Assembly: GCA_016210925.1 (NCBI GenBank)
Contig: JACQTF010000179.1
Location: 1 to 60,913 of the forward strand
Source of the DNA: Acidobacteriota bacterium
GTDB taxonomy: Bacteria > Acidobacteriota > UBA6911 > JACQTF01
Direction of reading: 5' to 3'
Length of the DNA stretch: 60,913 bases
Shown one piece after another: positions 1,398 to 45,680 of the stretch. The notes beneath the pieces are model-generated. The model had not been told where the DNA came from, ran no database searches, and saw only the letters and a program-made list of their open reading frames with translations. The translations under genes and the position numbers were made by a program. The first letter of the stretch is position 1. Every line of letters begins with the position of its first letter.

Positions 1398-2900
1398 TCA
1401 GCGTGGCTTCGTGGCTGAGTTTTTCTCGTGTTGTTCCACTTCGACCTTGATCCACCTCTCCGGATAAGACCCGTAGTCCTTCATGTAGTCGCCCTTGACA
1501 TTGATCCCGGGCACCGCCGGAATCCAGGCCTCCTGGAGCAGGTCGTCGGGATCGCCATATTGGGCGGCAATCCTGCGAACCTCCGGATCATCCAAAAAGG
1601 TGATGCGTCCCTTGTCCGCGACCTGGACCGTCTTGCCGTCGGCGGTCTCCACGTCGATGGTATTAAAGTACGTGTGGATATGGAAATGACCGCGTGTCAG
1701 ATTCTCAGCCTCGACCTTTTCCCTGTATGCCTTTGTGTGGCTGGCGGTCACGGGAATGCTGACTCCGAAGCCCCAGTGAATGACGCCGGAGCGGCCGCGC
1801 TCCCACGTCATGCCTTCGCCCTTGGTCACCGTGGTGACCCGGGCAATCTTGGGATTCGTGCCCAAGGCCGCCTCGATAAACCATCCCACGCCCTTTCCAG
1901 GAAAGCCGGGGTATTGGACGGTTTCATATTTCTTGAGGACCTGCTGGATCGCTTCGCCGTAACGCCCGCCCGCTTCCACACGCGCGATCTTACCGCCCTC
2001 CAGGTAGAGCTTCGTATAGGGGAACACGCCCGCGTGGTTGATCGTGCCCGCCACGGTTCCCTTCGCATCAATGTCCGGCATCGCGAGAAAGAGAGGGGTC
2101 AAGCTAATATGTCCCCGCTTCACGACGTCATAGGTGCCACGCGGATAAATGGGATCATCATATTCCTTCAGGAGCTTCTCAAGGTGTTCCGGCTTGACGG
2201 ACCACGTGAGATCCGTTCCCTCCGGGTCCGTAATGTGAATCCGCCGGGCGTTCTTGAACGCATCCCAGACTTTTCGGTCGATGATGTCCTGAACCTCCGC
2301 TGGAAAAGAGGCTGACAAAATAAACTTTTCTGCCGTGCTCCAGGGGATCCGTTCCCAGCGGAATGCGCTCACCGGCTGCGGGCCCCCGCTTCCTTCGATG
2401 AGCAAGTCGTAGCGATCGGCTTTTGCCAACGCCATGATCTTCTGGTAATACTGTCCTCCCCCCGCCTGAGGGTCCAGCATTCGGGTGGCTTCCACGGTTC
2501 CGTCCTGTGGCAACCCGCCGTGACCAGAGGCCTCACCCGGCTCCGAGCTTGACAAAAGCACAATGTCCAACCTGGCGCCGGCCTCGCGAATGGCCATGGC
2601 CAGGGCGTCACGCACCAGAGGGTCGAAGGTGCTGGGGATCACCATCATCACCTTTTCGCCCGGCTTGACGTTGTAACCTGGGCGGAGCGTTTCCCGACGG
2701 GAAGGCTTGCGAACGACCACCCTGGCAATTTCCAGCAAATCCGCCGCCGACTTCACCTCCCGCAGCTTGGGATATCGAGGCGCGGGGTACTCAAGACCTT
2801 GCGCCTTCTGCGCCCTCACAAGGCCGCCGAAGGTCAAGCCAAACAGAAAAGCCATCACGAGAACACACATACCTCTCAGTGACAAATGATGCTTGGACAT
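1398..2900 (-). CDS. exported protein of uncharacterised family, paralogue 1 (motif order recalls M29 aminopeptidase/NicX fold)
   Basis: 500-aa ORF with signal peptide (MCVLVMAFLFGLTFGGLVRAQ). Motifs are YPAPRYPK, ITDPEGTDLTW, EAALGTNP, SGVIHWGFG, HFHIHTYF and a C-terminal EAWIPAVPGINVKGDY. Paralogous to 14079..15794, 17925..20369 and 44151..45680. Confidence 0.8.
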   Translation of the reverse strand: MSKHHLSLRGMCVLVMAFLFGLTFGGLVRAQKAQGLEYPAPRYPKLREVKSAADLLEIARVVVRKPSRRETLRPGYNVKPGEKVMMVIPSTFDPLVRDALAMAIREAGARLDIVLLSSSEPGEASGHGGLPQDGTVEATRMLDPQAGGGQYYQKIMALAKADRYDLLIEGSGGPQPVSAFRWERIPWSTAEKFILSASFPAEVQDIIDRKVWDAFKNARRIHITDPEGTDLTWSVKPEHLEKLLKEYDDPIYPRGTYDVVKRGHISLTPLFLAMPDIDAKGTVAGTINHAGVFPYTKLYLEGGKIARVEAGGRYGEAIQQVLKKYETVQYPGFPGKGVGWFIEAALGTNPKIARVTTVTKGEGMTWERGRSGVIHWGFGVSIPVTASHTKAYREKVEAENLTRGHFHIHTYFNTIDVETADGKTVQVADKGRITFLDDPEVRRIAAQYGDPDDLLQEAWIPAVPGINVKGDYMKDYGSYPERWIKVEVEQHEKNSATKPR

Positions 2901-3001
2901 GTTGAACCTCCCACGAAGTCAATCGCCTGACATGGTCAGGTTCCTTTTTTGCTGTAAAAAGATCTGACCTCTCTACACTGAGAAATCGGGCTCATACGTT
3001 T

Positions 3002-4714
3002 CTAGTCTCGGTACTTTACCATAAGAAAGGCCGGCGCCGATGTCTCGCCTCCCGACGGGGAAGCGCTCACCCGAACGGGGAAGGTGCCTACCGCTTGAAG
3101 GGATATCTCCGTTACCTCTGCTTGTAATTCAGTGGTACTCATGTAGGTAGTCTTGAGACCGGTCCTATCGAACCAGACAATGGACTCCCGTGCAAAGCCG
3201 GTTCCCCTTATCGTCAGTGTGACCCTTGTGTCTCCCTGTACCACGACGTAGGGATGAACAGAGCGGATGGATGGAGCGGCACGATCGCCCGGATTGTCGC
3301 GAAACGGGCGTTGATAAGGGTTCGTGTACCAGGCATGGTAGCCCATGTTCATGACCTGCCCATCTATCATTACCAGCTCGATATTCCTGGTGTTCCGGAT
3401 GTCCTCTAACGGATCCCCCCGAACGACAATCAAGTCAGCCAATTGACCCGGTTCGAGTGTACCCAGTCCCTTTCCTCTCAGATAAAAGTCCGCCGGATTT
3501 TTGGTAGCCGTCTGAATCGCCTGCATCGGAGTGAGGCCCACGTCCTCCACAAAGACCTCCAGTTCCTGATGCAGGGTCGTACCGGGAGGTGAAGACCCCA
3601 CAAAGTCCGATCCCGCCAGGAGGAGACCCCCGGCTGCAACAAACCTCTTGAGGAATTCCAGCATCTTCTCATAGCCTGCTCGCCGCCTCGCCAGCTCCCT
3701 GGGCGTGGCTCCTTTCAGAAAGGACGTGCTGAACCACCTTTGACGCGCATCTTGTGGGAGGTAAGCCAGGTTGGGGTCGTCCAGAAGCCTGCGATTCTCC
3801 AAATCGAACCTGTCCCAGTCCCTGAGAATCCCCTTGGCGCTATGGACCAAGTCGGGCTGAATCATGACCCGTCGGTCGATCAATAAACGGATGAGATCAT
3901 CAAATTTGTTGGCATCCATCTGGTAGTGGAATACGCCCCCACCTGGGGTACCCCAGGGATTGCCTCCGGCGGTGGCCTTGATCACCCTTGCCTCAGACTC
4001 GGGGACGAGTGCCGCTGAGATTCCACCGGCATGGATCAACCCATCAATGCCAGCCAGGGCAGCTTCCCTGGCATCAACGATCCGCAAATGACCCACCACG
4101 GGTATTTCCACCGCGTGCGCTACCTCGGTCACAGCTCTCAATTGGTCGGCAGTGATGCCCTCGTAGACTTTGATGAAATCGACTTTTCTCCGGACATGTT
4201 CCTCCGCAGCCGCTTTTGCTTCCGTCGGGTTCTTCACGACGAACCTGTCCCGCATCAAACCGCCGTCCGACCCGGTAATGCCCGACCCCGTGGTAAACAC
4301 CCGTGGGCCCCAGAGCTTACCTGTTGCGGAGGCTTCCCTGACTGCCAGGACATAGTCCATGTAATTTCCCGTATCAATGAGCGTCGTCGTGCCGTGCGTG
4401 ATCAGCAGTTCCGGCAAATACTCCCAATAGTGCCCGTGTGCGTCGATGAACCCCGGCAGGATCGTTTTCCCTTGAGCATCGATTCTCTTCGCCCCGGCAG
4501 GCACCTCCGTACGAGCCTTCGGACCGACGGCCTTGATCCGGCTTCCCTCGACCACGACCACGGCATCCGCCAACGGCGGCCTACCCGTACCGTCGATTAA
4601 TGTTCCTCCTTCAATGACCGTCACCTGGCTCTGCCCCAGAGCCACCGTCCTGGCCTCAGCGGCAAAATAGAAAAGTATCGCGACCCATACAATCAAAAAT
4701 CTCACCGTTGTCAC
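3002..4714 (-). CDS. exported metal-dependent amidohydrolase with C-terminal IPT/TIG-like domain
   Basis: GTG start preceded by GGAGG with a 4-nt spacer. Signal peptide present. GFIDAHGHY metal-binding motif and an ...AGSDF... region. The C-terminal ~90 aa (VVVQGDTRVTLTIRGTGF...) look Ig-like. Confidence 0.85.
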   Translation of the reverse strand: MTTVRFLIVWVAILFYFAAEARTVALGQSQVTVIEGGTLIDGTGRPPLADAVVVVEGSRIKAVGPKARTEVPAGAKRIDAQGKTILPGFIDAHGHYWEYLPELLITHGTTTLIDTGNYMDYVLAVREASATGKLWGPRVFTTGSGITGSDGGLMRDRFVVKNPTEAKAAAEEHVRRKVDFIKVYEGITADQLRAVTEVAHAVEIPVVGHLRIVDAREAALAGIDGLIHAGGISAALVPESEARVIKATAGGNPWGTPGGGVFHYQMDANKFDDLIRLLIDRRVMIQPDLVHSAKGILRDWDRFDLENRRLLDDPNLAYLPQDARQRWFSTSFLKGATPRELARRRAGYEKMLEFLKRFVAAGGLLLAGSDFVGSSPPGTTLHQELEVFVEDVGLTPMQAIQTATKNPADFYLRGKGLGTLEPGQLADLIVVRGDPLEDIRNTRNIELVMIDGQVMNMGYHAWYTNPYQRPFRDNPGDRAAPSIRSVHPYVVVQGDTRVTLTIRGTGFARESIVWFDRTGLKTTYMSTTELQAEVTEISLQAVGTFPVRVSASPSGGETSAPAFLMVKYRD

Positions 4715-4724
4715 CAGGCCTCCT

Positions 4725-7700
4725 TCAAAAGGCGAATTTCAACCCAAATTGAATCTGTCGTGAGGTATTGACCGTGCCCGTGATTCTTCCCGCATTTCCT
4801 CTCACCGCTCCGGAAGGGAGAAACAGGTCTTGTACCGGCAAGCCAAAATTCGGAGTGTTGAATAGATTGAAGAATTCGGCCCGGAACTCGACGGTTTTCT
4901 TTTCTCCCAAGCCTGTCTTCTTCACCAGGGAAAAATCAAAATTCACAAATCCCGGACCTCGAATCGTATTTCTTCCCAGATTCCCTATGAATCCAGACCG
5001 CGATGGAGAAAACGCCGCCGGGTCGTAGTAGCGATCCGGACCGCCCAAGACCGGATTGTTGCTTCTGCCTGGAACGAGATCGGGATAAAAGGTTTGGTCG
5101 GAAGGTCCGAACACAAAATTCGGCGGGATGAACCCCAAGTACACGCTGAAGGGATATCCGGACGCCACCGTGGTGATTCCGCTCACTTGCCAGTCACCCA
5201 TGAGCTTGGCCACCGTCCCGGAGCTTTTGCCGCCCCAAGCCCGTTGCGGCCCGAAAGGCAAGTCATAGGTGTAGTTGGCCACAAAATTATGTTTGACGCT
5301 AAATGGAGCCGGTCCCACGTCCTTGGGGCAAAACAGACATCGGGGCACGGCATTATCGTTGCTAAAATCCCGATTTCCGGCAACCGATGCCCCGTCGTCC
5401 AAGACTTTAGAAAAAGTATAGGACGCCTGGAATCGAAGCCTCTGAACAGGACGCTTGCTGAGGCTAACCTCCAGAGCATGATATTTCGCAATGCCGTCCG
5501 TGACTTTCACGCGCATCGTCGAAAAGTTGGGATTTCTGAGAACCGGCGGGAAGGGGTAAAATCGTCTGCCGTCAGGCAATATCTGGTGGACCGGATGGTT
5601 GATTCCAAGATGATGCGGCAAGTGGATACTATGGGCGCCAGAGTATCCGATCTGCAAGACAACACTGGGAAGCACTTGCTGCTGGATGTTAAGCCCGTAG
5701 CGGCTTACGTAGGGCTGGTCAGGGCGAAAAACGAACCCGTCAATGCCCGGTTGTCCCGACGCAACCAGATTGTTTGCCGCAAAGTTCGGAAACACAACCG
5801 GTCCCAGAACGCTTGTAATGGTGGTGCTCAGAAGAAGAGGCGGGTTTTGGGTGAGCGCAGTTCGAGCATAGTGTGAAAAGAGGTGCTCGTAGAAGATTCC
5901 AAATCCCGCTCGAATAACCGTCTTTCCCTTTTGAAAGGGATCCCAGGCAAGTCCAATCCGCGGCGCGAAATTTTTCAGTCCAGGATTCTCGAAGAGCCTG
6001 CCCCCCACCACAAAATCCGACGGCCGCACCAGCGGATTGAACGGGTCCTCCAACTGGGAAATCCTGCCATGCGTTTCCCCCGGAACAGTGATGAACTCGT
6101 ATCGCAGTCCGAGATTCAAGGTGAAATTTTCCCTGACCCGGTAATCGTCTTGGAGGAAAAGCCCTAACAGCATCTGCCGCACGCTTCGGGTCGTGCTCGA
6201 CCCCGGAAGCTGCCCGCTGACGCTCCGGGGCCTGTTGGTCAAGAACTCTTGCAGGCTTTGAAATGCATACGAGCCGCCGGCCTGAAATTCGGTGCGGATG
6301 TTGTATTGAAGTCGTTCGACGTTGGCGCCCAGCCTCATCGAGTGACCGCCTCGATGCAGGACTAAGTCATCCGAGTACTGAAACATGTTGGTGACAAATA
6401 TTCGGGGTCGAAGAACATCTCCTCCGAGGGCGGTCAGCCCCCCGACACTCACACTGCCAATGGCGCCAGGAATCCCTGTGAAACGCAGTAACGATGTGTC
6501 TTTGTGCACTCCCACGTCAAAGTCAGACAGCAGGGAACGGTTCAAAGCAAAGCGGAATGTGTTCAAAGCGCTGCCAGTGATGATTCGTGTCTCCTGAAGG
6601 GTAAAGTACTGATTCCGGGAATCCAAACTTTGCTTCGTCAGCCCGACCCGATCCGGCCGCGTCAAGGTGGCGTCATCAAAAACGTAGCGGCCGAAAAAGG
6701 AATCGCTGTCACCGAACTGCCGGTCCACTCTTCCCATGAAGTAATGTTCATCGATGGCCTGGCCGGGGGAGCTTAAAAATTCTCCGGTCCCGTCGGGAAA
6801 AGTCCGGCTGTTCGGAAGAGGGTACAGCGCCACGTAGGGCCGGACCGCAGGGTCTGCTCCTTGACGCACCGCCGCTCCCGGCACGGTGGCAACGTTGGAC
6901 AAGCCCAATCTCTCGATGAGTGCTTCATAACTGGCGAAGAAAAACGTCCGGTTCCTCTGAACAGGACCTCCCGCAGTTGCGCCGAACTGGTTGCGCTTGA
7001 ACGGGGGAATCGGCTGCGTGGGTTGGTCGAAAAAATTCTTCGCATCCAGCGCGCTATTGCGCAAAAATTCAAAGGCCGACCCATGGAGCTCGTTCGTGCC
7101 TGATCTCGTCACGTAGGTGACCACCCCCGCAGAAGTCCTTCCGTATTCTGCGCTGAAAGGATTGGTAACGATCTTAAACTCCCTGATCGTATCCACGCCC
7201 AGCTGCACTCCCGCCGAGCTTCCCGGTGTCGTATTTGCCATCGCGTTGATGTCGGTCTCGTCGAGCAAGAAGCTGGTCGCTTGCGGCCGGGATCCTCCTA
7301 TACTCATCCGTTTTCCCGCACCCAAGGCGACGTTCGCTGTCGTTGAGAATTGCGATAAAGTCACCCCGGGTGTGAGGAGTGCCAACTGGGTTAGGTCGCG
7401 CCCGTTCAGGGCAAGTTCCCGCATCGTTGCCTGATCGATCAAGGAAGAAACTGCAGATGTGCTCGTCTCCACCAAGGGCGCTTCTTCAGTGACCACCACC
7501 TGCTCTGTCACTTCACCTACTTTGAGCACCATGTCCACCACCGCATGCCTTCCCACTGTCAACTCGATCCCTCGCCTGATTGCAGCCTGAAACCCGGGTA
7601 ACTCCGCTTTAACCTCGTAATTGCCCAACGCAAGGTTTGGAGCATGATAACGACCTTGGTCATCTGTGATCGCGGTTCTGGTGATCCCAGTGTCAAGATT

Positions 7701-13741: not shown

Positions 13742-14078
13742 GTTGACCTCCCTTTCCGGGGCTGATTTGCCTTCGCTCATTGGATTCGTCTTCCGAATCG
13801 CCACTCGGGTCTGAGATGAGACGTGGCGAGAATACTATAGTCGTCTTCCTTGCTTGGGTCTACTGTGGATTTGCCGCTGCCGAGCTCAAAAAAGCCTAAG
13901 ATCGGCTTCGTCGTGACGAACTTGGGCTTGGATGAAGCTCTTGAAGGGCAGCATTTCAGCATTTGCGGAAAATCCTTGACATCTCCATTCAGGGGATGGT
14001 AGCAACGTTCTCAATTCTGTTTGCGCGCGCAAGTGTTTTCGGCCGTGGGTAATGGAATGACGGATGGAGGTAGACCCT

Positions 14079-15794
14079 ATGCGACGACGTTGGATAGCAC
14101 TGTCCATGAGTTTGGCGGCGCTGCTGGGTTGTTCCGCGCAAAGGCAGGAAGCGGAATTCCAATCCAAGTACATGGCGCCCCGTTTTCCTTCCTATTTTAA
14201 AGACATAAACTCGGTGGAAGACCTGATGCCTTACGTGCGGACCCTGGTCCGGGCCAAGGTGGGCTTTCAGGGAAAAGGCCTGGGGGAGGCCGGGCCGGGT
14301 GACACGGTCGCGTTGATCGTCCCGTCGACGGCGGAGGATATGGTCATCGAGGCCATTCATCGCGCCTACGACGAGCGGAAGGTCAAAGCGGAGATCGTCT
14401 GGTATCACGACCTGGTGGGGGTCACTCGGGAGCAGGCGCTGGCCCTGGACAAGGCCAGGCGCCCGTACACGGCGGAAAAAGGCTTCATGGAAGCGGCCAA
14501 TTGGATCAACGGCGTCTTCGCGGATCGCAACGTGCCGAAGCAGTGGCTCAAAGAAAGAAGGCCCGATCTGTACAGTGAACTCTTCCCTCCCTCCTCTGAG
14601 CTCTCGAAGGAGCTGGAAGAAGTGGCCAACAAGATGGAGCGGCGCGAGTTTGCCAGAAAGCTGCGGGAGTATATCGAGCGTCATCCCAACGTCAGGGGCA
14701 TTTTCTGGGGCCAGGGAGGAAGTACCGGGCTTCGCCGGAGCCTGTACCCGCACGACAAGAAACTTTTGGGGCTCTTCACTTACACCAACCGCTACGAGGT
14801 GATGAGCAAGATTTCCTCTTTTCCGGGTGACGTGTGGGCCCTGGTCGAGGAGCGGACCATCGAGCCTCTGGGCTGGATAGACCGATTCGAGGCGACCGAT
14901 CCCGAAGGAACCCAGCTGGTGACCGACCTGACTGAGGATCAAGCCGACCGGTGGAACAGGGGCTCTTACCAGCGCGGCCACCTTTACATGTTTCCCAATC
15001 AGGCGACGGGCCGGTTCCCCTACTCCTTTGTGGAGTACCCCGCCCAGGAAAGCAAATGGGTCTCCCGTTCGCCCATGGCTCTGCCGAGCGGTGTGATTGC
15101 GGGCACTCACAGCGGCAGCGGCCTGATCCCCCGGATCGAAGTGCACTTCAAGAATGGTTACATCACGGACGTCAAGGGCGGGGGAGTTTACGGCGAAGCC
15201 TGGAGGGAGTTCCTGAAGTATCCCAAATTGAACGAGCTGACCTTCCCCTTCCACCAGGAGCGCGGCTTTTGGTACCTCTACGAGTGCGCGTGGGGCAGTC
15301 GCCCGAAGGATTTCCGCAATCCCTTCTATCTGGAAAGGGGCAGTATTGGACCGGAGCGGATGCGCGCCGGTGTGATTCACTGGGGCTTTGGCCTTCGGCT
15401 CTGGCATGATCCGGATAAGCCCGTCGAGTCGCCGAGCTGGATCAAGTTTTCGAAGGACAATAACACCCCCGACGACCACGGCTGGCATATCAAGACCTAC
15501 TTCAGCACGTACAAGGTGAGGGTACGTGGGACCGATAAGTGGCTGACCCTGATGGACGGCGGTCATATGACCGCGCTGGACAGTCCGGAGGTCCGCGCAC
15601 TCGCCTCCCGCTACGGGGACGCCGATGCAGTCCTGGCGGAAGAATGGATCCCGCACATTCCTGGGATTAACGTCCCCGGAAAATACGAAGACTATGCCCG
15701 GGATCCCTGGAAGACCGTCAGCGCGGTGTTCGAGCGAATTAAGAACGGAACTTATGAGTACTTCTACCCGCCGGTCGCTAAGAAAACCGGTTAG
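14079..15794 (+). CDS. lipoprotein of the uncharacterised exported family, paralogue 2
   Basis: ATG 14079 lies 8 nt after GGAGG. Lipobox LAALLGCS. Motifs are MAPRFPSYFK, ATDPEGTQL, AGVIHWGFG, GWHIKTYF and EEWIPHIPGINVPGKY. The 555-aa antisense ORF 13989..15656 is an artefact. Confidence 0.85.
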   Translation: MRRRWIALSMSLAALLGCSAQRQEAEFQSKYMAPRFPSYFKDINSVEDLMPYVRTLVRAKVGFQGKGLGEAGPGDTVALIVPSTAEDMVIEAIHRAYDERKVKAEIVWYHDLVGVTREQALALDKARRPYTAEKGFMEAANWINGVFADRNVPKQWLKERRPDLYSELFPPSSELSKELEEVANKMERREFARKLREYIERHPNVRGIFWGQGGSTGLRRSLYPHDKKLLGLFTYTNRYEVMSKISSFPGDVWALVEERTIEPLGWIDRFEATDPEGTQLVTDLTEDQADRWNRGSYQRGHLYMFPNQATGRFPYSFVEYPAQESKWVSRSPMALPSGVIAGTHSGSGLIPRIEVHFKNGYITDVKGGGVYGEAWREFLKYPKLNELTFPFHQERGFWYLYECAWGSRPKDFRNPFYLERGSIGPERMRAGVIHWGFGLRLWHDPDKPVESPSWIKFSKDNNTPDDHGWHIKTYFSTYKVRVRGTDKWLTLMDGGHMTALDSPEVRALASRYGDADAVLAEEWIPHIPGINVPGKYEDYARDPWKTVSAVFERIKNGTYEYFYPPVAKKTG

Positions 15795-17924: not shown

Positions 17925-20369
17925 CTATTGTTGCTGCTGAGCTTCGCCGCCCACCGGGGGGATCCAATCCTCCTTCAGAAGCTTCTCCGGGTCCCCAAAG
18001 CGTGCCACCGCAGCATGAATGTCCGGATCGTCCAGGTAGGCGACATGCCCGTTGACGATCACGTCTTTGACCAGTCCGGCTCCCTCCACGGTCAAAATGG
18101 GAAAATATTGCTGGTATTCCCAGGTACGAATCCCCTCCGAGGTTCCAAAGGTGAGGGTCAAAACCCCGGAGCGCTGGCCGCCTGCATACCACGACCACAA
18201 AAAGGCGGAGCCCTTGAGCTGGCCGGTCGCGGGAAGACGGAAGGCAGCGGGACTCATTCCCCAACTCAAGGAGAGCAGAGCGTCCCCTATCTGCTGCACG
18301 GAAGCTGAAGCCTCACCTTCGAAGCGCTGGACCCGGCCCTGTTCGATCGCCAATTTCAGTGGCGCGGTAGCACCTGTGAGAAGGTTGTTGGTGACCACCT
18401 GCCCTTTTGCGAAACCGTCGGGCTTCGGAAACAGAGTGACGGTCACCTGGGGCGGGAAGTGAAGCAGCCCGTGATCGGGGAGATCGAGTCCCTCCACGTT
18501 TTTGCGGTCCACGGGCTGAACGTCTAACATCAACTCGGTTCCCCGGCGGTCCAGCAGGGTCACGCTGTGGAGGCTCCGGACCTCTTCCAGCAGCTTCTCC
18601 ACCATGGCCCGGGGCACCTCGGTGCCCTGGAGGGCCCACCGGGAAGCAAAGATTTCAGGCAGCGCTACCACACTGACGAACCGGACCTGCTGCTCTGCCA
18701 GCCATTGAGCAAACGGTTTCTGATCCTGGCGCATCCCTCGGACAGGCAAGTAGGTGGTGCTCAGGACAAATTTCGTCCGCGCCACTTCCCCCCACAGGTC
18801 CGGCGGGAGGGTCCTGGATCGGAGCTGCTGCCAGGCCTGCAGCGGCGTACCGGAAAACGCGGGGGGCTCCACCTCGCGGGTCACTACGCGACACTTTTGT
18901 TCCCTCAACGCTTTGACCAGGGCTTCGTTGACCAGAGCGGGAACGGAGGCATCGGTGATGAGCAGCACGTCAGAACCCTCCGGCGCCCGCAAGGATCGGG
19001 TGACACACAGCCGGGCCGCCTCCATGAGCTCTTCCACGCTGCCGGGTTTCTTCACGGACGGAGCCCTGGGTTCCGGCAGTGGCACCTGTTCCGCGCCGAA
19101 CATGGTGCACTGCTCCACCAGCAGCACCGGATCACCGTAAGCAGAAGCCACCTTCAGCACGTCCGGCGCGTCCAGCGCCACCACGTGGCCGTCGCGGATG
19201 AAAGGACGTCCGGCCTGGAAGAGCGACGGAAAGAAGATCATCATCTCGAATTCCCGGCTCCCGCGCCGCTGCCGGAAGTGCAGGGTGACGACGCCGCTGC
19301 GCTGGTGCCCGCCCAGCTCGCCCAGCAGACGCGCCGGTCCCACGGAGGAAGGGCTCGCCACGCGGAAAGGTTTGGGATTCAGGTTCCAGGACAGGCCGGA
19401 GAATTCGTAGGGGGCCTCTCCCCGATTTTTCACGTATTCACCCCACGTTCCCCCGCCCTCCACCCGCAGTAGCCTTCCCTCGGAAAGGGAGAGCCGCGTT
19501 AACGGCACCATCCCTGCAGGGGCGCTGTGAGCCACCAGCGTGCCCGCTCCCGTCCCCTTCCGCGCCATCAGGCGCACGCGATAGTTGGGGGGGAAGAAGA
19601 GCAACGTTCCCGTGGGGGCAGGGTCAAACTCAGGTGCCGCCGCACTCGCTTCAAAGCGAAAAGAGGATCCAGCCGGGTCCTGCAGCAGGATCAGGCCGCC
19701 GCGCAGAAGTTGCCGGCTTTGCTCCTGGTAGGTGGCTTGCAGAACATCCTTGGGATACGCGGCCCACGGCGCCGCCAATACCTCCGGGACGGCGGTGACC
19801 AGGACCATTCGGAGCCCGTGCCTTCTGAGAAAGCCCTCCAGGTCCATTGCCTCCCGCTGGAAGGCGTGGGGGTTCAGGTATGAAAGCGAGACGATAACCC
19901 CGCTCTCCTTCGCAGCTCGCCAGATCTCCTCGGGCCACCAATCGCGGGCATGGTACGCCTCGTGAAGCCCCGTCAGCGACTCGCCCCGTTTCCATGCGGA
20001 ACGGGGCTCGCCCTTCGAGGTCGAAATCGGGATCCGAAATTCCCTCACTGAAACGCCCCGTTCCGACGCAGCCCGAAGGAAGGCCCGGCGCACCAGCTCG
20101 GAGGTGGTGGAGTCGGACACCAAAAGCATCCGATCCCCGGACCGCAGCTCCAACCAGTCCTCCAGCAGACGACGCGCCGGCCGCACGAGCTGGAGTTCGC
20201 TGAAAACGACCGGAGGCTTCACGGGCCGGATGTAGTCGGGCAGGTAATAGCCTCCGGGCATGCGGGGCCCCTGCTTCCCGTCCATCCCTTCCGCGCCCAA
20301 AACCAGCAAAAGCACTGAACCGAACCAAACGCACCCCCGAAGCACTTGTGACATGAATGGCTGCCTCAC
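17925..20369 (-). CDS. exported two-domain (tandem-duplicated) member of the uncharacterised family, paralogue 4, His motifs degenerate
   Basis: 814 aa with a signal peptide. Both halves align to paralogue 1 and end in ...GHVVALDAPDV..ASAYGDP and ...GHVAYLDDPDIHAAVARFGDPEKLLKEDWIPP. SGVIHWGFG is replaced by SGVVTLHFR/SGVLTLTFG, and HFHIH by EFEMM/WEYQQ. Confidence 0.8.
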   Translation of the reverse strand: MRQPFMSQVLRGCVWFGSVLLLVLGAEGMDGKQGPRMPGGYYLPDYIRPVKPPVVFSELQLVRPARRLLEDWLELRSGDRMLLVSDSTTSELVRRAFLRAASERGVSVREFRIPISTSKGEPRSAWKRGESLTGLHEAYHARDWWPEEIWRAAKESGVIVSLSYLNPHAFQREAMDLEGFLRRHGLRMVLVTAVPEVLAAPWAAYPKDVLQATYQEQSRQLLRGGLILLQDPAGSSFRFEASAAAPEFDPAPTGTLLFFPPNYRVRLMARKGTGAGTLVAHSAPAGMVPLTRLSLSEGRLLRVEGGGTWGEYVKNRGEAPYEFSGLSWNLNPKPFRVASPSSVGPARLLGELGGHQRSGVVTLHFRQRRGSREFEMMIFFPSLFQAGRPFIRDGHVVALDAPDVLKVASAYGDPVLLVEQCTMFGAEQVPLPEPRAPSVKKPGSVEELMEAARLCVTRSLRAPEGSDVLLITDASVPALVNEALVKALREQKCRVVTREVEPPAFSGTPLQAWQQLRSRTLPPDLWGEVARTKFVLSTTYLPVRGMRQDQKPFAQWLAEQQVRFVSVVALPEIFASRWALQGTEVPRAMVEKLLEEVRSLHSVTLLDRRGTELMLDVQPVDRKNVEGLDLPDHGLLHFPPQVTVTLFPKPDGFAKGQVVTNNLLTGATAPLKLAIEQGRVQRFEGEASASVQQIGDALLSLSWGMSPAAFRLPATGQLKGSAFLWSWYAGGQRSGVLTLTFGTSEGIRTWEYQQYFPILTVEGAGLVKDVIVNGHVAYLDDPDIHAAVARFGDPEKLLKEDWIPPVGGEAQQQQ

Positions 20370-32379: not shown

Positions 32380-32401
32380 GAGGCTGTCCTCAACCCCGCA
32401 C

Positions 32402-36191: not shown

Positions 36192-36346
36192 GGCCGTCGC
36201 CGAGGTGTTACGCTACCCTGCTCGGCTCGCCTCTTTACTTGCTTTTCTTGCGTGCGCTGGTCCATCATCTTAGAGGTAAAATGCGTCTGACTGTCGCTCT
36301 CGGAGCGATGAGCGATGGTCTGAAAAGGTTTCTTTGGGAGGATTCT

Positions 36347-39300: not shown

Positions 39301-39469
39301 GTTCCGTGCCGAAATGTTCAACGTGTTCAACCGGGCCAACTTCACCATTCCCGCCGAGGCGGCGCGACAGGTATTTTCCGCCACCGGGCCCATCGCCGGC
39401 GCGGGGCGGATCACCGGTACCTTGACCACCTCGCGACAGATTCAGTTCGGACTGAAGTTCATTTTTTAA
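36347..39469 (+). CDS. TonB-dependent receptor with CarboxypepD_reg-like N-terminal domain
   Basis: Start trimmed to ATG 36347, 5 nt after GGAGG (MNRRLSGLLIFIEFILVLCSVSSMLFAQ). C-terminus is TSRQIQFGLKFIF. Confidence 0.9.
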   Translation: MNRRLSGLLIFIEFILVLCSVSSMLFAQRTTGTISGVVKDESGAVVPGAGVVVKNTETGAVRSTVSNDEGAYAAPNLAPGSYEVSAEVPGFKTSIRRGIKLSVGGSAVVDITLNLGEITEEVVITSEAPLVETTTSGLSGLVESQQIRDLPLNGRDFIQLSTLHEGVVSVRTGDSNQSRGFGTKLSIGGARPSQNRFLLDGSDINDTAGATPGSAAGVMLGVDTLREFRVLTNAYSAEFGKSAGGAIIAVTKSGTNEYHGTIFEFLRNDNLDARNFFDRGPAPEFKRNQFGFSFGGPILKEKTFFFGSYEGLRERLGVTRIARVPDVSVRTSAGISPVILPYLNLYPLPNGRAFGGGIAEFLSSASDATDEDFAALRIDHRFSGADSLFGRYSFDDASRNSPNPLQLFTGSQTSRYHYLTIEETHIFSPRLLNTARFAYNTTRTGDVSITLKEIDRSLFFVPSHPQFGGIAVAGLTELSGGAAGFQPRIFNNVNVDTLEAVTYDRGSHSLKMGLGVTRYHNNNNAPFRPGGRFQFDSLQDLLQARASQLESMVPGVSDTVRRWRQWLVGMYLQDDWKATPHLTFNLGLRYEFITVPEEADGKSANLRNVPFSKESTVGPPFKNPSLRNFAPRVGVAWAPGDDGTLAIRAGVGVFYDQILSQYMILAGSRVPPFWLQANPRNPSFPDYIRTVSIRDVDPRVDTLPYDIDQPYRIQYNLSIEKQISRNLAVHTAYVGSRGVHLPRAVADANANVPQGFLDGRLFWPATRSRLNPVWSTIRYRPTDGNSFYHSWVAGLTKRFSGGLQFQASYTFGRSVDDSSAVFNENEFTNTIPVANIFDRTAERGLSDFHVAHNFVANYLWELPFGRDRKWGHQLSGAPAWFISGWQISGILNLSSGTPFTPVLSFDRARAGAGRGGGGQRPDLVSGSNNPVLGGPDRYFDASGFALPPVGVLGNLGRNTVMGPGLASFDFSLFKNSRVGENKNLQFRAEMFNVFNRANFTIPAEAARQVFSATGPIAGAGRITGTLTTSRQIQFGLKFIF

Positions 39470-39480
39470 GGGAGCTCAGC

Positions 39481-40965: not shown

Positions 40966-40969
40966 CTGA

Positions 40970-41080
40970 AAGGCAAACCTAAAACTCTGAAACCTGAAAC
41001 CCCAGCGACCGCGCAACCATTCTCTTGTCCGGGTCTCAGGTTTCAGGTTTCAAGTCTTAGGTTTCAGGTTTCAGGTTTTT
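40970..41080. repeat. GAAACCT/AGGTTTC-type short-period palindrome (locus B)
   Basis: Left arm gcaaacctaaaactctgaaacctgaaaccc. Right arm caggtttcaggtttcaagtcttaggtttcaggtttcagg. Lies between the UbiD stop and the zinc-ribbon ORF. Confidence 0.85.
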
Positions 41081-41089
41081 GGAGGTACT

Positions 41090-41239
41090 ATGGCTAGGAT
41101 TTTTTGGGTGACTTGTCCCAAGTGCAACAAGCGGTTCTATTGTCATTCCGAGGAGCTGTTGCACAAAAAGATTGACTTGCTGTGCCCCTATTGTGGAATT
41201 TATTTTCCCCAGGAACAGAGCCCGAAAATTCAGGAGTAG
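41090..41239 (+). CDS. small zinc-ribbon protein (49 aa), absent from the ORF track
   Basis: GGAGG lies 4 nt upstream of the ATG. Translation is MARIFWVTCPKCNKRFYCHSEELLHKKIDLLCPYCGIYFPQEQSPKIQE, with two CxxC pairs. The stop TAG is 3 nt before the amidohydrolase ATG. Confidence 0.5.
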   Translation: MARIFWVTCPKCNKRFYCHSEELLHKKIDLLCPYCGIYFPQEQSPKIQE

Positions 41240-41242
41240 AAC

Positions 41243-43105
41243 ATGACCAAACTGGCTGCATTCATCGCCGGCGTCGTCCTGCTCTTCAGCATGTCGACCG
41301 CCCAGGCCCAAAAGGTGACGGTCCCCGAACAGATCGTTCTGTATCCGGACCTGATTGTCTACAACGCCAACATCGCGACCATGGATGACAAGGGTTACAA
41401 CACCCAGGTGGGAACCGTGGTTCAGGCCATGGCCATCCGGGCCGGCCGGATTCTCGCATTGGGCAAGAACGACGAGATGCTGGGCCTCGCGGGCTCCCAG
41501 ACCGAGAAGATCGATGTCAAAGGAAAGACCATCATCCCCGGCATCGTGAACGCCCACACCCATATTCATGACAAGGCTTTCACGGACTGGCTCCGCGAAC
41601 ATCCGGAGGAATCGCGGGCCGCAGCTGCGGTCTTCCGCGCGCGGGGAGCGACCTATGAAGAACTGCGACACGCCGTGGAGGTGGCCCTCAAGGAGCGGCT
41701 GCCCGGCGTCGAGAAAGGCAAATGGGTGTTTATGAACCTGCCCACTGCCCCCGATGGTTCCGGCAAGGGAATCGGAACCAACTTCGTCCTGGACCGGGCG
41801 ATGACGATGTCCGATCTGGACAAGCTGGCGCCGGATCATCCGCTGCTGGTGAATGCCCATCCCGGCTACCTGGTGAACACGGCAGCCATCGAGGCTCTCA
41901 AAAAGATCTATGGCTTCGATCCGTCCAACGAGCTTCGCCCTGGGGGGGTGGCGGAGCAAGGGGTCTACTACCGGCGCGGCGTGGTCATTGACAGCTACTT
42001 CAGGGGGAGACGAGAGGAGCTGGCCGAAATTATCTTGAAGGAATTGGAGAGGTGGGCTGCGGGTGGCGTGACGGCTTTTTCATCCCACATCATGGGCTTT
42101 GAGAACTTCGACGCTTACATGACCTTGCGCCGGCAGAACCGAATGCCCATTCGTTTTGGGTACAGCCACTTTGCCGGCCTCATGGTGAACCCCTATTCAG
42201 CCTCCTTCTACCGCCGGATGGGAGACATGGCCGGCTTCGGAGACGACTGGCTCTGGCAGATCGGGGTTGGAGCAGGAAGCATCGATTCCGGGCCGCCTGT
42301 GATTTGTACCTCCATTGACATTCCGAAGGAGCTGAAAGAGCGGGAAGTGTGCCGCATCGGGCCCGGCGAGACCCAGGGGGAAGGGCTCTATGCCGCGCTG
42401 TCGTCCGGGCAGCGGGTTGCCGTGGGGCACGCCTATGGGGATAAAGGCGTGGACATGTTCATGGACATGATCGAAAAAGCCATCGAAGAAGCTCCGGGCG
42501 TGACGTTGGAGACCGTGCGCGCCCAGAGGCTGAGCACGGACCACTGCGGCCTGTATCCCCGTCCGGACCAGATCCCGCGCATGAAGAAGTTGGGCATCCT
42601 GTTGAGTTGCGGCGCCAACATGCTGGATCGAACCCAGCCCTGGCTGGACCTCTATGGCCAGGACAAAGCGAAGTGGATCGTTCCGGTCAAGAGCGCCCTG
42701 GACGGCGGGCTCCGGGTCGTTTACGAAATGGAACAGGCTCCCACTCAGGTCTTCTCGGAAATGGTCCCCTTCATCACCCGGAAGAACAAGAAAGGCATTA
42801 CGATCGCCCCCGAGGAAGCTGTGGACCGGGTCACCGTCCTGAAGATGGCCACCTCGTGGTGCGCCGAATTCATGCTCAGAGAAAACGTCATTGGAAGCCT
42901 GGAGAAGGGGAAAGCAGCGGATTTTCTCGTCCTCAACAAGGACTACTTTACAGTCCCCGTGGAGGAAATCGCCACGGTTCGGCCGTTGATGACGGTGGTG
43001 GACGGCAGGACCGTTTTCCTGGAGACGCAGTTTGCCACGGAGCTGGGTCGGAAAGCTACGGGTCCCCAGCTCGACTACAGCAAAAAAGAGAGCAGCGTCG
43101 AATAA
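41243..43105 (+). CDS. exported amidohydrolase (Amidohydro_3/YtcJ-like)
   Basis: 620 aa with signal peptide MTKLAAFIAGVVLLFSMSTAQAQ. GIVNAHTHIHD motif. C-terminal GKAADFLVLNKDY...VVDGRTVF. Confidence 0.88.
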   Translation: MTKLAAFIAGVVLLFSMSTAQAQKVTVPEQIVLYPDLIVYNANIATMDDKGYNTQVGTVVQAMAIRAGRILALGKNDEMLGLAGSQTEKIDVKGKTIIPGIVNAHTHIHDKAFTDWLREHPEESRAAAAVFRARGATYEELRHAVEVALKERLPGVEKGKWVFMNLPTAPDGSGKGIGTNFVLDRAMTMSDLDKLAPDHPLLVNAHPGYLVNTAAIEALKKIYGFDPSNELRPGGVAEQGVYYRRGVVIDSYFRGRREELAEIILKELERWAAGGVTAFSSHIMGFENFDAYMTLRRQNRMPIRFGYSHFAGLMVNPYSASFYRRMGDMAGFGDDWLWQIGVGAGSIDSGPPVICTSIDIPKELKEREVCRIGPGETQGEGLYAALSSGQRVAVGHAYGDKGVDMFMDMIEKAIEEAPGVTLETVRAQRLSTDHCGLYPRPDQIPRMKKLGILLSCGANMLDRTQPWLDLYGQDKAKWIVPVKSALDGGLRVVYEMEQAPTQVFSEMVPFITRKNKKGITIAPEEAVDRVTVLKMATSWCAEFMLRENVIGSLEKGKAADFLVLNKDYFTVPVEEIATVRPLMTVVDGRTVFLETQFATELGRKATGPQLDYSKKESSVE

Positions 43106-43109
43106 GAAC

Positions 43110-43404: not shown

Positions 43405-43731
43405 TTAATTGCTCGCCAGAAGGACAAGGGTCGCGTCGGCGAAATCCATTGGCGTGTCTGCGTATTTCTTCATGAGCCTGGCGGCCTGCCTGAGCTGCGA
43501 CGCCTGGGTACTTTCGTGGATCAGCAAACCGCTCGCTTCCACAAGATCGACCAAAAGTCCAGGCCCATCGCGATCCGCCGCGACGAAGTGCATCGCCTCC
43601 ACGAGGACCGCACTGGTGGTGCAGAGCTGTCCTGAAAACTGGGCCAGGCAGGTCGCCACTGGTTCGTGCTCCGGATCATCGCGGTCAAGGTAGGCAACGA
43701 GGGGCCCCGTGTCGATCAGCCAGGTTCTCAT
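43405..43731 (-). CDS. vapC: PIN-domain toxin VapC
   Basis: 108 aa, MRTWLIDTGPLVAYLDRDDPEH...DFADATLVLLASN (acidic PIN residues). ATGA overlap with the upstream antitoxin. The rest of the 429-aa ORF 43405..44694 is an artefact. Confidence 0.8.
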   Translation of the reverse strand: MRTWLIDTGPLVAYLDRDDPEHEPVATCLAQFSGQLCTTSAVLVEAMHFVAADRDGPGLLVDLVEASGLLIHESTQASQLRQAARLMKKYADTPMDFADATLVLLASN

Positions 43732-43970
43732 CGCCGCCAGTTGCGGGCCCTCAGTTCCTTGCGCCAGGGGTCGCCCGACGCACGCTTCAGGGATAGGCGA
43801 CCCATGAGGTGGCCGGCGCGGGTCTCCAAACGCCTCTCCGCGAGTGCGTTCTCCAGGATCTCCCGCACCAGCTCCGAATCGGTCTTGCCGAGCTGCCGGG
43901 CTCTCCGCCCCAGCCGCTCCCGCAGTTTGACATCCAAACGGACTGTAAAGCTCCCCCTCATGTCTTGCAT
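43728..43970 (-). CDS. vapB: ribbon-helix-helix antitoxin VapB
   Basis: MQDMRGSFTVRLDVKLRERLGRRARQLGKTDSELVREILENAL is a CopG/RHH motif. The start is ATG 43970 or 43961. Confidence 0.75.
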   Translation of the reverse strand: MQDMRGSFTVRLDVKLRERLGRRARQLGKTDSELVREILENALAERRLETRAGHLMGRLSLKRASGDPWRKELRARNWRR

Positions 43971-44057
43971 TGTAAAACGTTGTCCGACATAAGTCAAGCA
44001 CGTGGGAGGGACGGGGTTGACTACAGTAAGGCCGAGGGCAACGTCGAATAAAACACC

Positions 44058-44146
44058 GGAAGGCTGGAAGGCTGGAAGGCTGGAAGAATGGAAGATTGGT
44101 GAGAGCCGCTTCCAGCCTTCCAATGTTCCAGTCTTCCAGTCTTCCT
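44058..44146. repeat. GGCTGGAA-type tandem repeat palindrome (locus D)
   Basis: (ggaaggct)x3 ggaagaatggaagattgg ... cttccagccttccaatgttccagtcttccagtcttcc. Lies between vapB upstream DNA and the stop of 44151..45680. Confidence 0.85.
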
Positions 44147-44150
44147 GCTC

Positions 44151-45680
44151 TTACGGATAGGGTTTGAAGTCCAGGATGGAGCCGTAGGCTTGGCGGTGTT
44201 CCTGGCGGATCCACTTCACCGGGTCGTTGGCGTAGTCCTTGAAGTAGTCGCCGGGCACGTTGATGCCGGGGATCGCGGGAATCCATGCCTCCCGGAGCAG
44301 CTCGTCCGGATTGCCGTATTTGGCCGCCAGCGTGCGAACCTCCGGATGATCCAGCGCCACCAGGCGCCCCTTGTCGATGACCTTCTGCTCCCCCCCGTCC
44401 CGCGTTTTGACCACATAGGTAGGGAAATAAAGATGGACATGGAAGTGGCTTCCCGGCAGGCCGCGGGAGGAGGCCCAGGCCGCGGATAACAACTGGCCGA
44501 TCCCCACGTGAATGACGCCCGACCGGTTGCGCTCGTAAATCCAGCCGCGACGTGCGATCTGAGACTCGAACACGTTGTGCGGTCTGACGATCCAGGGATG
44601 GGTCCCGATGGCGCTTTCCATCAGATACTTGCTTCCCGGCTCCGGGTAGTGGGGATACTGGATGTCCTTGGTCAGCTCCAGGAACTCCCGCCACAGCTCC
44701 CCGAAGCGGCCGCCCCCCTCGATGGAAACCACCTGATTGCGCTTGATCGCGATCTTCAGGTGGGGATAAGGCCCCATGTGGTCCGAGGCCCCCTGGATGA
44801 CGCCCTCCCCATCGGATTTGTCCAGAATGACGCCCTGGGGATGGCCCATGAGGTGGCTCTGAATCAGCGGAATTTCCGACCGGCCCGGACCATAGATGTG
44901 GGTGCCGCTCCCGGCCACCTTCAAAGTGGGGTGCAGGCCCTCGACCACCTGCCAGTACTCGTCCAGCCAGGTGAATCGATAGTCGGTCCCTTCGGGGTCC
45001 GTGAGGTGGACCTGGCGGGCCTGCCGCAGTCTCTCCCAGCCTTTCTCGTCCACCACCTTCAAGAGATCCATGGGATATTTCACGGACGCGTCCGCCAGCA
45101 TTTCCCGGGTGACCCAGTCCAGCCCGTATCCAATTTCCAGGTCATTCTCAGGCTGGCGGTAGGTGATCCCGATCACCTTGTCGTATCCCTGGGCTTTGGA
45201 CGTGTCCATCAGCCACTTGGACGAACGAAACAGCGGGGGCTCGCTGCCCGGACCCTTTCGTCGCGCTCTGGCCACGACCCGCTCCATCATGTCCACGGCC
45301 CCTTCGATCTTTGTCAGGGTCGCGTCAGTGATCAGGGTATCGACGGTGCAATTCAGCTCCTTGAATCCCCTCTCGAACGCCTCGATCACCAGAGGGTCCA
45401 ACGCCCTGGATACGACGAAGAGAATCTTCTCGCCCCCTTTGACCTCGTATCCGGGAAACTGGTTACCCGAATAGGGCATGGGCCGCTGGATGATGATCTT
45501 GGCGTTGGGGAGCAGCTCCTCGACGGAGGTGATCCGAGGTATCTTGGGATACCTCGGAGCGGGATAGCCCAAGGTATCCGGCTCGGGACTTGCAGCCGTC
45601 CTAAGCTCGAGCCAGAGAACCCCCGCCAAAAGGGATCCCAATAGAATAAAGACCGTGAGGATCTTTGCCATGAAGCTCAT
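44151..45680 (-). CDS. membrane-anchored/exported protein of the uncharacterised family, paralogue 3
   Basis: 509 aa. AGGAG precedes the ATG. N-terminal hydrophobic segment. Motifs are YPAPRYPK, LTDPEGTDYRF, ESAIGTHP, SGVIHVGIG, HFHVHLYF and EAWIPAIPGINVPGDY. Lies 13 nt downstream of the TRAP permease gene. Confidence 0.85.
   Translation of the reverse strand: MSFMAKILTVFILLGSLLAGVLWLELRTAASPEPDTLGYPAPRYPKIPRITSVEELLPNAKIIIQRPMPYSGNQFPGYEVKGGEKILFVVSRALDPLVIEAFERGFKELNCTVDTLITDATLTKIEGAVDMMERVVARARRKGPGSEPPLFRSSKWLMDTSKAQGYDKVIGITYRQPENDLEIGYGLDWVTREMLADASVKYPMDLLKVVDEKGWERLRQARQVHLTDPEGTDYRFTWLDEYWQVVEGLHPTLKVAGSGTHIYGPGRSEIPLIQSHLMGHPQGVILDKSDGEGVIQGASDHMGPYPHLKIAIKRNQVVSIEGGGRFGELWREFLELTKDIQYPHYPEPGSKYLMESAIGTHPWIVRPHNVFESQIARRGWIYERNRSGVIHVGIGQLLSAAWASSRGLPGSHFHVHLYFPTYVVKTRDGGEQKVIDKGRLVALDHPEVRTLAAKYGNPDELLREAWIPAIPGINVPGDYFKDYANDPVKWIRQEHRQAYGSILDFKPYP

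Follow-up and report, generated by a model that had tools for sequence, protein, structure and literature searches.

A predicted exported protein family with an M29/NicX-type fold in an Acidobacteriota genome, its tandem-duplicated member, and its cohesin-domain neighbor

The M29/NicX fold is known, to our knowledge, from three functional types: cytoplasmic Co/Zn aminopeptidases, an Fe(II) pyridine-ring dioxygenase, and crocagin peptide binders. A 60,913-nucleotide contig from an Acidobacteriota bacterium (JACQTF010000179.1, assembly GCA_016210925.1; this whole stretch is referred to as the window) encodes four paralogous proteins, here termed P1 to P4, that are predicted to share this fold. 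With moderate confidence, we read P1, P2, and P4 as exported NicX/M29-fold metalloenzymes, likely amide or peptide hydrolases, and P3 as a noncatalytic binder.

The three described types differ in their metal sites. In NicX, Fe(II) is held by H265, S302, H318, and D320, the last of these positioned by R293 (PMC7910607). The aminopeptidase AmpS has a two-metal site formed by E253, E319 (bridging), H348, H381, and D383, with Y355 nearby (PMC4661694); these residues were verified in the AmpS sequence recovered from the PDB. Among the crocagin proteins, CgnB keeps a dinuclear Zn site that its duplicate CgnE has lost, both bind peptide, and independent duplications within the family have repeatedly given a dead second copy (PMC10070186). 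VppE, a NicX homolog of the characterized type, is encoded on the Shinella plasmid pShin-05 (PMC5003870), and its identity was confirmed against PDB 7CN3.

A sequence-only reading of the window, made from its letters and translated open reading frames (ORFs), had proposed four paralogs of an exported family with five domain copies between them. All four ORFs are present in the ORF list and translations and match the family profile: P1 (500 residues, 1398..2900, minus strand), P2 (576 residues, 14064..15794, plus strand), P3 (814 residues, 17925..20369, minus strand, a tandem duplicated domain), and P4 (509 residues, 44151..45680, minus strand). The P2 ORF opens at ATG 14064; the start at 14079 used in the sequence-only reading is the second ATG, which gives 571 residues and the cleaner lipoprotein signal MRRRWIALSMSLAALLGC. 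The proposed paralogy lies far beyond chance both in BLASTP and against a family hidden Markov model (HMM). Pairwise BLASTP E-values were 3.5e-83 for P1 and P4, 2.7e-40 for P1 and P2, and 1.9e-33 for the two halves of P3, with P1 matching the C-terminal half of P3 at 1.1e-18 and its N-terminal half at 2.8e-9. The HMM, built without the window's own sequences and with E-values scaled to 1.84e9 proteins, matched P1 at 2.5e-188, P4 at 8.3e-176, P2 at 3.3e-85, and P3 at 1.7e-38 (two domain copies), and a six-frame scan of the window returned exactly these four genes. The same ordered motifs had been ascribed to every copy. In the alignment this applies fully to P1, P2, and P4 and partially to the P3 copies, which keep the scaffold motifs D-P-x-G-[ST], R-S-G-V, and L-D-x-P-[DE] and lack the candidate catalytic motifs. 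In P1 the YPAPRYP motif is marked by the P41 codon (2778–2780, minus strand), and P2 carries an insertion of ~80 residues within its N-domain.

An AlphaFold2 model of P1 built from a 58-sequence alignment reached a predicted local distance difference test (pLDDT) score of 92.7 and a predicted template modeling (pTM) score of 0.89. Searched with Foldseek against the PDB, this model matched PepS (1.2e-15), NicX (1e-13), AmpS/AmpT (4e-13), and CgnE/CgnB (~1e-5) over nearly its full length, the PepS and AmpS/AmpT matches spanning ~470–480 aligned columns; the next matches had E > 2e-3 and were unrelated. The N-terminal half of P3, the most divergent copy, was modeled with pLDDT 81.7 and pTM 0.82 and matched NicX first (3.5e-17, TM-score 0.66), then M29 enzymes (2.5e-11). 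As P1 and the most divergent copy both match M29/NicX, we take all five domain copies to share the fold. Profile comparison with HHalign gave superfamily-level homology between the family and a 16-sequence NicX alignment (96.3% probability, E 1.5e-9, 231 columns), with 85.8% for VppE alone and 93.9% over 320 columns for NicX and VppE together. The precomputed Pfam tag PF26233 ("NicX") is found on all NicX homologs, and also on 6 of the 120 listed relatives of P1 and on both tandem relatives of P3 described below, mostly as weak or faint matches. The sequence-only reading had guessed at the M29/NicX fold from motif order; model and profile searches agree with that guess, and we are highly confident of the fold assignment from the predicted structures. 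Judged by profile, the family is a distant relative of NicX and, through NicX, of M29, and a member of neither.

A candidate metal site emerges when the family is aligned with these enzymes. E343 of P1 (EAALGTNP) aligns with NicX H265 (SHIGWGLQP) and AmpS E319 (GEVALVP), H375 (GVIHWGFG) aligns with AmpS H348 (AACHLAIG) and lies within two residues of NicX S302, and R368 aligns with NicX R293. The strand H405-F-H407-I-H409 aligns with the H-x-D strand of NicX (H318-x-D320) and M29 (H381-x-D383), and TDPEGTDL corresponds to the GTDL/GSDF motif of M29 and NicX. On the minus strand of the window, the P1 codons are H264 at 2109–2111, E343 at 1872–1874, H375 at 1776–1778, and H405/H407/H409 within 1674–1688. 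P4 has a complete candidate site (H276, E355, H391, H412, H414, and H416), and P2 carries H306, E407, H439, H472, and H475, with Lys at position 409 and Gly at position 289. Conservation was counted over 214 full-length relatives in P1 numbering. Position 264 is His in 189 of these, 343 is Glu in 185 (Asp in 6), 375 is His in 201, 405 is His in 200, 407 is His in 182 (Asp in 20), and 409 is His in 179 (Glu in 14). All five core residues (H264, E343, H375, H405, and H407) are retained in 167 relatives, so that the His/Glu/Asp ligands suspected in the sequence-only reading are widely conserved; P1, P2, and P4 keep them and P3 has lost them. Where 407 or 409 is acidic, the residue is compatible with an H-x-[HD] metal strand. 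A carboxylate is also kept where M29 has its bridging Glu, as would suit a dinuclear center or at least one unlike that of NicX. From the alignments we infer that the candidate ligands cluster in space, and metal binding by the intact copies seems likely on this pattern.

The candidate ligands are missing from both copies of P3. On the minus strand, the N-terminal copy follows the hydrophobic leader at ~19098–20285 and the C-terminal copy occupies 17928–19097. At positions 264, 343, 375, 405, 407, and 409 the two copies carry T/L, gap/S, T/T, E/gap, E/E, and M/Q, respectively, a pattern that makes P3 a probable noncatalytic pseudoenzyme. A word-indexed homolog search with P3 returned P3 itself only, and tandem relatives came from an exhaustive profile search. 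Only two were found, at 31% identity: P0332 (818 residues, L088:1681-4137) and P0387 (751 residues, L089:103-2358). Both are likewise ligand-degenerate, and across the three proteins N-terminal halves pair with N-terminal halves and C-terminal halves with C-terminal halves; the fused ligand-dead architecture would therefore be old and maintained. At L088, the one tandem relative whose gene context was usable, single-domain family members flank the tandem gene, and in the window P3 likewise adjoins the intact P2 (14064–20369).

Signal peptides were assigned by visual inspection together with hydropathy. The N termini of P1 to P4 each show a positive stretch followed by a hydrophobic one, with a 15-residue hydropathy maximum of 1.9–2.6 in the first 30 residues. 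The P1 leader covers approximately residues 1–30 (2811–2900) and ends in ...GLVRA|QK; P2 has the lipobox LLGC, with its Cys codon at 14130–14132, and RRRWI in its leader is in addition compatible with a minimal twin-arginine pattern; in P4, approximately residues 1–30 form a signal peptide or anchor, the leader ending in TAA|S. The public gene call starts P3 at Met29, skipping the hydrophobic segment; the longer P3 start is supported because its relative P0332 has a clear signal peptide. In P1 orthologs, the hydrophobic leaders are unrelated to one another and finish with A-x-[AG]-Q directly ahead of the conserved YPAPRYP. Export of all four proteins, as the sequence-only reading predicted, is thus backed by N termini of n-h-c type, the P2 lipobox, and variable ortholog leaders ahead of YPAPRYP, and with leaders on all four, the cytoplasmic location typical of M29 is not matched. 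Among 178 motif-aligned relatives, 130 have a strongly hydrophobic 12-mer before YPAPRYP, 9 are lipobox-like, and several of the nonhydrophobic ones have twin-arginine leaders (SLPRRQFVK...), as seen in P0072, P0073, P0076, and P0250 (SLPRRQFVKTSAAS...). Such leaders imply, from their sequence pattern, export in a folded and possibly metal-loaded state. A further 19 of the 178 begin at most 14 residues from the YPAPRYP motif and are presumably cytoplasmic. In five other relatives (P0112, P0117, P0245, P0248, and P0256) an N-terminal extension of ~40–90 residues (MCYWDS.../MCYECG...) replaces the signal peptide. Export thus appears to be the majority state of the family rather than a universal one, and we consider it quite probable that P1 to P4 are all of the exported kind.

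No well-characterized family claims these proteins. Pfam and NCBIfam gave no match for P1 to P4 (PF02073 being absent at E ≤ 1), and relaxing Pfam to E ≤ 10 for 58 relatives brought up no PF02073 and no peptidase or NicX family, only stray Glyco_trans_4 matches; these Pfam negatives come from a local copy that misses NicX homologs and probably does not contain PF26233. PDB sequences were matched neither by single sequence (phmmer) nor by profile (hmmsearch), and our literature search found no description of the family. A homolog search with P1 returned 372 relatives; among the matches listed, all that carry a source name are called "hypothetical protein," and most come from metagenome-assembled genomes (MAGs) of Acidobacteria. 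The exhaustive profile search of 1.84 billion representatives found 965 clusters (50% identity) when the cutoff was E ≤ 1e-3 and 196 when it was E ≤ 1e-30, and the family is rare because these 965 clusters are all that so large a set holds. In a set holding one genome for each of 185,579 species, relatives are encoded at 381 loci. Most of the loci listed are from Acidobacteriota (Terriglobia, Pyrinomonadaceae, and Blastocatellia), often with many copies per genome, and the family turns up sporadically in Binatia, Betaproteobacteria, Steroidobacteraceae, Chloroflexi/Dehalococcoidia, a Thaumarchaeota MAG, Bacillus sp. OV166, Ureibacillus, and Amycolatopsis. The closest relative of P1 (79% identity) is from an Acidobacteria MAG, that of P4 is 61% identical, and P2 has long-form relatives with the same insertion at 44–53% identity. 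Each window paralog therefore has its own subfamily elsewhere, which makes the paralogs ancient and presumably functionally different. A Terriglobia MAG (L035:6487-12971) carries an array of four consecutive P2-like paralogs, and locus L008 has three genes of ~508 residues without a Pfam match in 13 kb, one a confirmed family member and two probable; judging from these arrays, the family grows by local duplication. One 2733-residue protein, P0388, gave 18 matches to profile positions ~190–232 at 90-residue spacing, each insignificant singly, and is probably a repeat protein with a spurious summed score.

The gene neighborhoods of the four copies are as the sequence-only reading described them, with uptake or hydrolytic genes beside each. 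P1 is the fourth gene of a closely packed operon on the minus strand, in which it follows two TonB-dependent receptors of CarboxypepD_reg type (7895–11044 and 4725–7856) and an exported amidohydrolase of COG1228 type (3002–4714) and precedes a cohesin-domain gene, with gaps of 38, 10, 101, and then 49 nt along this order. The top named relative of the amidohydrolase is a Caulobacter-type Xaa-Pro dipeptidase, at an E of 2e-36 that falls far short of the model cutoff, and the C terminus of the amidohydrolase carries a TIG/"choice-of-anchor Z repeating domain" (NF058597, E 5e-19), which suggests surface attachment. P4 closes a TAXI-TRAP operon after the TAXI gene (47721–48737) and a fused DctQM gene (45694–47682), with gaps of 38 and 13 nt. 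P3 lies 90 nt upstream of the gene for a molybdopterin oxidoreductase without a signal peptide (15801–17834), with which P2 is convergent. Elsewhere in the window, Pfam and NCBIfam place a CoxSML/XDH-type molybdenum hydroxylase with CoxG at 31513–35693 (minus strand); the top NCBIfam relatives of the hydroxylase are the 4-hydroxybenzoyl-CoA reductase alpha subunit and XdhA, both below cutoff. A plus-strand block at 36239–43105 holds a TonB-dependent receptor, UbiD (39481–40965), and an exported Amidohydro_3 protein. Together, the CoxSML-CoxG and UbiD region looks, from these assignments, like a catabolic block for aromatics or heterocycles. All three amidohydrolases of the window have signal peptides, and CoxSML, CoxG, and UbiD have none. 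UbiD also recurs near family members in other genomes.

Several smaller features of the window stand apart from these genes. Immediately 3' of P4, a toxin-antitoxin-like pair was read from translations only (43405–44123, minus strand), comprising a ribbon-helix-helix-like ORF (43728–44123) and a PIN/VapC-like C-terminal region within ORF 43405–44694. Two small ORFs lie at 49320–50067 (minus strand) in the gene-poor 48.8–50.6 kb, the one at 49320–49637 being IscU/NifU-like by eye. Scanning the window for Rfam families and tRNAs gave no hits.

The 258 nearest neighbors of family genes at 76 genome loci included 12 TonB-dependent receptors, 11 Amidohydro_3 proteins, 9 paralogs, and 6 cohesin partners, the other commonest families being polysaccharide deacetylase (10) and aconitase (6); from locus geometry, the deacetylase and aconitase-like neighbors appear to belong to a non-acidobacterial (Binatia/deltaproteobacterial) subgroup. 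Other contexts of relatives comprise UbiD, phenylphosphate-carboxylase-like, and CoA ligase genes; Amidohydro_3 with FAD_binding_5 and, at a separate locus, UbiD with Amidohydro_2, a luciferase-like gene, and TRAP; three-paralog clusters with NHL and CarboxypepD_reg genes; phosphotriesterase (PTE) in Bacillus; SDR with TauD in a betaproteobacterium; and luciferase-like oxidoreductases at further loci. Neighbors vary by lineage, with receptor, amidohydrolase, and cohesin genes in Acidobacteria, and a conserved operon was dropped as a guide to function. The survey of distribution and neighborhood thus describes a family mostly of Acidobacteriota, multi-copy and without a universal partner. The theme its contexts share is, as far as annotation tells, the breakdown of small organic compounds, and hydrolases are prominent near the exported members.

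The gene 49 nt downstream of P1 (746..1348, minus strand) encodes an exported protein of 200 residues, recognized by its signal peptide and single cohesin domain, which shares 50% identity with the product of the gene after a P1 ortholog in another genome. A profile of these cohesin-tail proteins reached cohesin entries in the PDB (E 1.3e-8), and 9 of 15 members score with the Pfam Cohesin model. Members are ~190–260 residues long and end in an invariant C-F-F-[YF]-[MT]-H-stop (C-F-F-Y-M-H-stop in the window), a tail covered by no Pfam or NCBIfam model, which might serve as a new signal for C-terminal sorting or anchoring, or as a modification site. Within 1.07 Mb around family genes there are 20 cohesin-tail ORFs (among them L002:9311-9910, three copies at L006, and others at L009, L010, L020, L042, L045, and L050), 6 of them immediately following a family gene in the same orientation; overall, the partner accompanies ~12 of 87 family loci. 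In the reverse test, a DNA pattern for the tail found 68 cohesin-tail loci in metagenome contigs (among L093–L212), and only 4 of these carry a family gene, ruling out the cohesin-CFFYMH protein as a family-specific partner. The gene directly upstream of the cohesin-tail gene is an Amidohydro_3 gene in 16 of 44 cases and a NicX-like family gene in most of the 4 loci carrying one. These two results make the cohesin-tail protein a general partner of exported metallohydrolase-like enzymes, with NicX-like and Amidohydro_3 genes sharing, by gene order, the one position upstream of it. Neighbors of cohesin-tail genes include relatives of P2 (53%), P4 (50–51%), and the window's Amidohydro_3 protein (49%). 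The conserved C-terminal extension of the P1 family was considered as a dockerin and ruled out: it lacks EF-hand-like repeats and occurs in cytoplasmic members without a cohesin neighbor as well. By analogy, the family and exported Amidohydro_3 enzymes could be interchangeable modules of an undescribed surface system in which the cohesin protein either tethers the enzyme to the envelope, its tail being a novel sorting or anchoring signal, or is the substrate, with P3-type tandem copies as dedicated noncatalytic binders of the system, a scheme we regard as improbable. If the cohesin protein were the substrate, its aromatic, Cys-containing C terminus would undergo binding and modification, the binding resembling that of the C-terminal core of the crocagin precursor by CgnB and CgnE.

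As exported metalloenzymes, P1, P2, and P4 would leave the cytoplasm via Sec, P2 as a lipoprotein. As periplasmic or outer-membrane proteins they would bind one or two divalent metals (Zn, Co, Mn, or Fe) and, most likely, act by amide- or peptide-bond hydrolysis on small nitrogen-containing organic compounds imported by the adjacent TonB-dependent receptors. Exported amidohydrolases would act alongside them, and products would enter through co-encoded TAXI-TRAP, TTT, and Liv-type transporters. P1 may cooperate with, or be tethered by, its cohesin-domain partner, and P3 would serve as a binding or scaffolding subunit, as CgnE does beside CgnB. In favor of hydrolysis are the P1 operon, the signal peptides on all three amidohydrolases of the window, the TonB-dependent receptors and Amidohydro_3 proteins among the neighbors of relatives, and the slot that the family shares with Amidohydro_3 ahead of cohesin-tail genes. 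The hydrolytic chemistry is the more tentative part of this scheme, and we hold it at somewhat less than an even chance. Several results weigh against the scheme. In HHalign, the family matched an M29 profile (AmpS, AmpT, and PepS, with sequences taken from PDB alignments) with a probability of only 14.9% (E 1.8e-3), so that by sequence profile the family is closer to NicX, an oxygenase, than to M29; a NicX-family profile search of PDB sequences did not reach M29 either. The M29 signature E253-E319-H348-Y355-H381-D383 is incomplete, with E253 and Y355 aligning to nonconserved hydrophobic residues and the position of D383 being His in ~85% of relatives, and the H-x-D strand aligns with H407-x-H409 or H405-x-H407, the HxHxH register being shifted by two residues from the NicX alignment to that with M29. 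No single operon partner is conserved family-wide across the 76 loci, and many relatives lie in aromatic or xenobiotic clusters (UbiD, Amidohydro_2, luciferase-like, TauD, and XDH-type hydroxylases), a setting that a small-molecule ring-transforming enzyme fits at least as well as a peptidase does.

The proteins could instead be NicX-type non-heme Fe(II) dioxygenases that cleave the ring of a hydroxylated N-heterocycle or aromatic within the CoxSML-CoxG-UbiD-amidohydrolase island, which we judge rather unlikely. NicX is the closest family by profile and the top structural match of the P3 N-terminal half, relatives carry weak PF26233 matches, NicX R293 is kept as R368, and E343 with the histidines makes a His/His/carboxylate Fe(II) site chemically possible; CoxSML, CoxG, and UbiD in the window, and UbiD, FAD_binding_5, Amidohydro_2, TauD, and luciferase-like genes near relatives, would suit such chemistry. 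The NicX ligand set is nevertheless changed, with E343 in place of H265, H375 two residues off S302, and mostly H-x-H for H318-x-D320, and the NicX substrate residues L104/H105, E177, and H189 have no conserved counterpart, aligning to G/P173–174 and ~250–259 in a low-confidence region. N-formylmaleamate deformylase, maleamate amidase, and maleate isomerase (NicD, NicF, and NicE type) are absent among Pfam hits in the window, whereas their genes stand side by side at the VppE locus. Sec export to the oxidizing periplasm would be awkward for an Fe(II) enzyme, and CoxSML and UbiD lack signal peptides. Family members also occur in MAGs labeled as strict anaerobes (Dehalococcoidia and Syntrophobacter) and beside anaerobic-type aromatic genes, which argues against obligate O2 dependence. 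A role as mainly noncatalytic ligand or peptide binders, intact copies included, for example in recognizing or processing the CFFYMH tail or in presenting substrates, draws on CgnB, which keeps its dinuclear Zn yet shows no peptidase activity and binds the precursor peptide (PMC10070186). CgnE and CgnB are significant fold matches, P3 and its tandem relatives are conserved though ligand-dead, and a partner with the invariant six-residue tail is encoded beside P1 and relatives of P1, P2, and P4. Set against this are the 78% of relatives that keep the five candidate ligands together with surrounding conserved Arg and Asp residues, as is typical of an active enzyme, and the low counts from the cohesin survey in both directions; moreover, no genes for a precursor, an Fe/2OG dioxygenase like CgnC, or a protease like CgnD, as expected of pathways to ribosomally made, post-translationally modified peptides (RiPPs), were seen in the window. 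We consider it improbable that the intact copies are mainly noncatalytic binders. Finally, the public start of P3 at Met29 and the 19 relatives starting directly at YPAPRYP would be explained if the family were ordinary cytoplasmic M29-like aminopeptidases whose hydrophobic N termini reflect wrong start codons. P1, P2, and P4, however, have no in-frame start between leader and motif that would give a plausible N terminus, ortholog leaders vary and end just before the motif, twin-arginine and lipobox variants exist, P0332 has a signal peptide, the EEHYHD signature is lost, and PF02073 does not match, all of which make this explanation very improbable. We retain the reading of P1, P2, and P4 as exported, probably metal-dependent enzymes with P3 as a binder.

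Acidobacteria are a dominant and poorly understood soil phylum with genomes rich in TonB receptors without known substrate. The reaction of this family, once known, would help to reveal what they take up and process at the surface. The family would add a fourth branch to M29/NicX, with a different His-rich ligand set, an extracytoplasmic location (Sec, Tat, or lipoprotein), and a strong acidobacterial paralog expansion. The tandem dead copy and the cohesin-tail partner, in turn, point to a protein-protein organization new for this fold.

Compared with NicX/Hpo/VppE, the 2,5-dihydroxypyridine 5,6-dioxygenases (PF26233; PDB 7CN3 and 7CUP), the family has a common two-domain fold, a G-[ST]-D motif (TDPEGTDL in the family, SKAGSDF in NicX), an x-[EH]-x-x-x-G-x-[NQ]-P motif (EAALGTNP and SHIGWGLQP), the Arg at R368/R293, and a metal-binding H-x-[HD] beta-strand. 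NicX is a cytoplasmic, mononuclear Fe(II) enzyme of ~350 residues (PMC7910607), whereas family proteins have ~470–580 residues and most are exported. They also carry the N-terminal YPAPRYP and a conserved C-terminal extension of ~60 residues that is lacking in NicX, Glu at the position of H265, and a His-rich HxHxH strand, and they have no counterpart of H105, E177, and H189. The M29 enzymes AmpS, AmpT, and PepS (MEROPS M29, PF02073; PDB 1ZJC, 2AYI, and 4ICQ) are the top fold matches for P1 and align at the bridging Glu (E319 with E343), the His (H348 with H375), the H-x-D strand, and the GTDL motif. The EEHYHD signature is absent from the family, D383 being mostly His and E253 and Y355 having no aligned counterpart, and M29 enzymes are cytoplasmic homodimers, in contrast to the predicted export signals of P1 to P4. 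The pairing of P2 with P3 is reminiscent of CgnB and CgnE (PDB 6ZSV and 6ZSU), M29-derived crocagin peptide binders in which an intact copy lies near a decayed duplicate; those proteins are cytoplasmic, have ~300 residues, lack the M29 N-terminal domain, and belong to a RiPP cluster, whereas the dead copies of P3 are tandem-fused, exported, and in a non-RiPP setting. Exported Amidohydro_3 enzymes (COG1574 type) of Acidobacteria and sediment bacteria offer a functional analogy only: they too are exported, metal-dependent, near TonB-dependent receptors, and in the same cohesin slot, with a TIM-barrel fold unrelated to that of the family. What is new here relative to these systems is an exported His-rich branch, a tandem dead copy, and a cohesin-tail partner, the first two as predicted from sequence.

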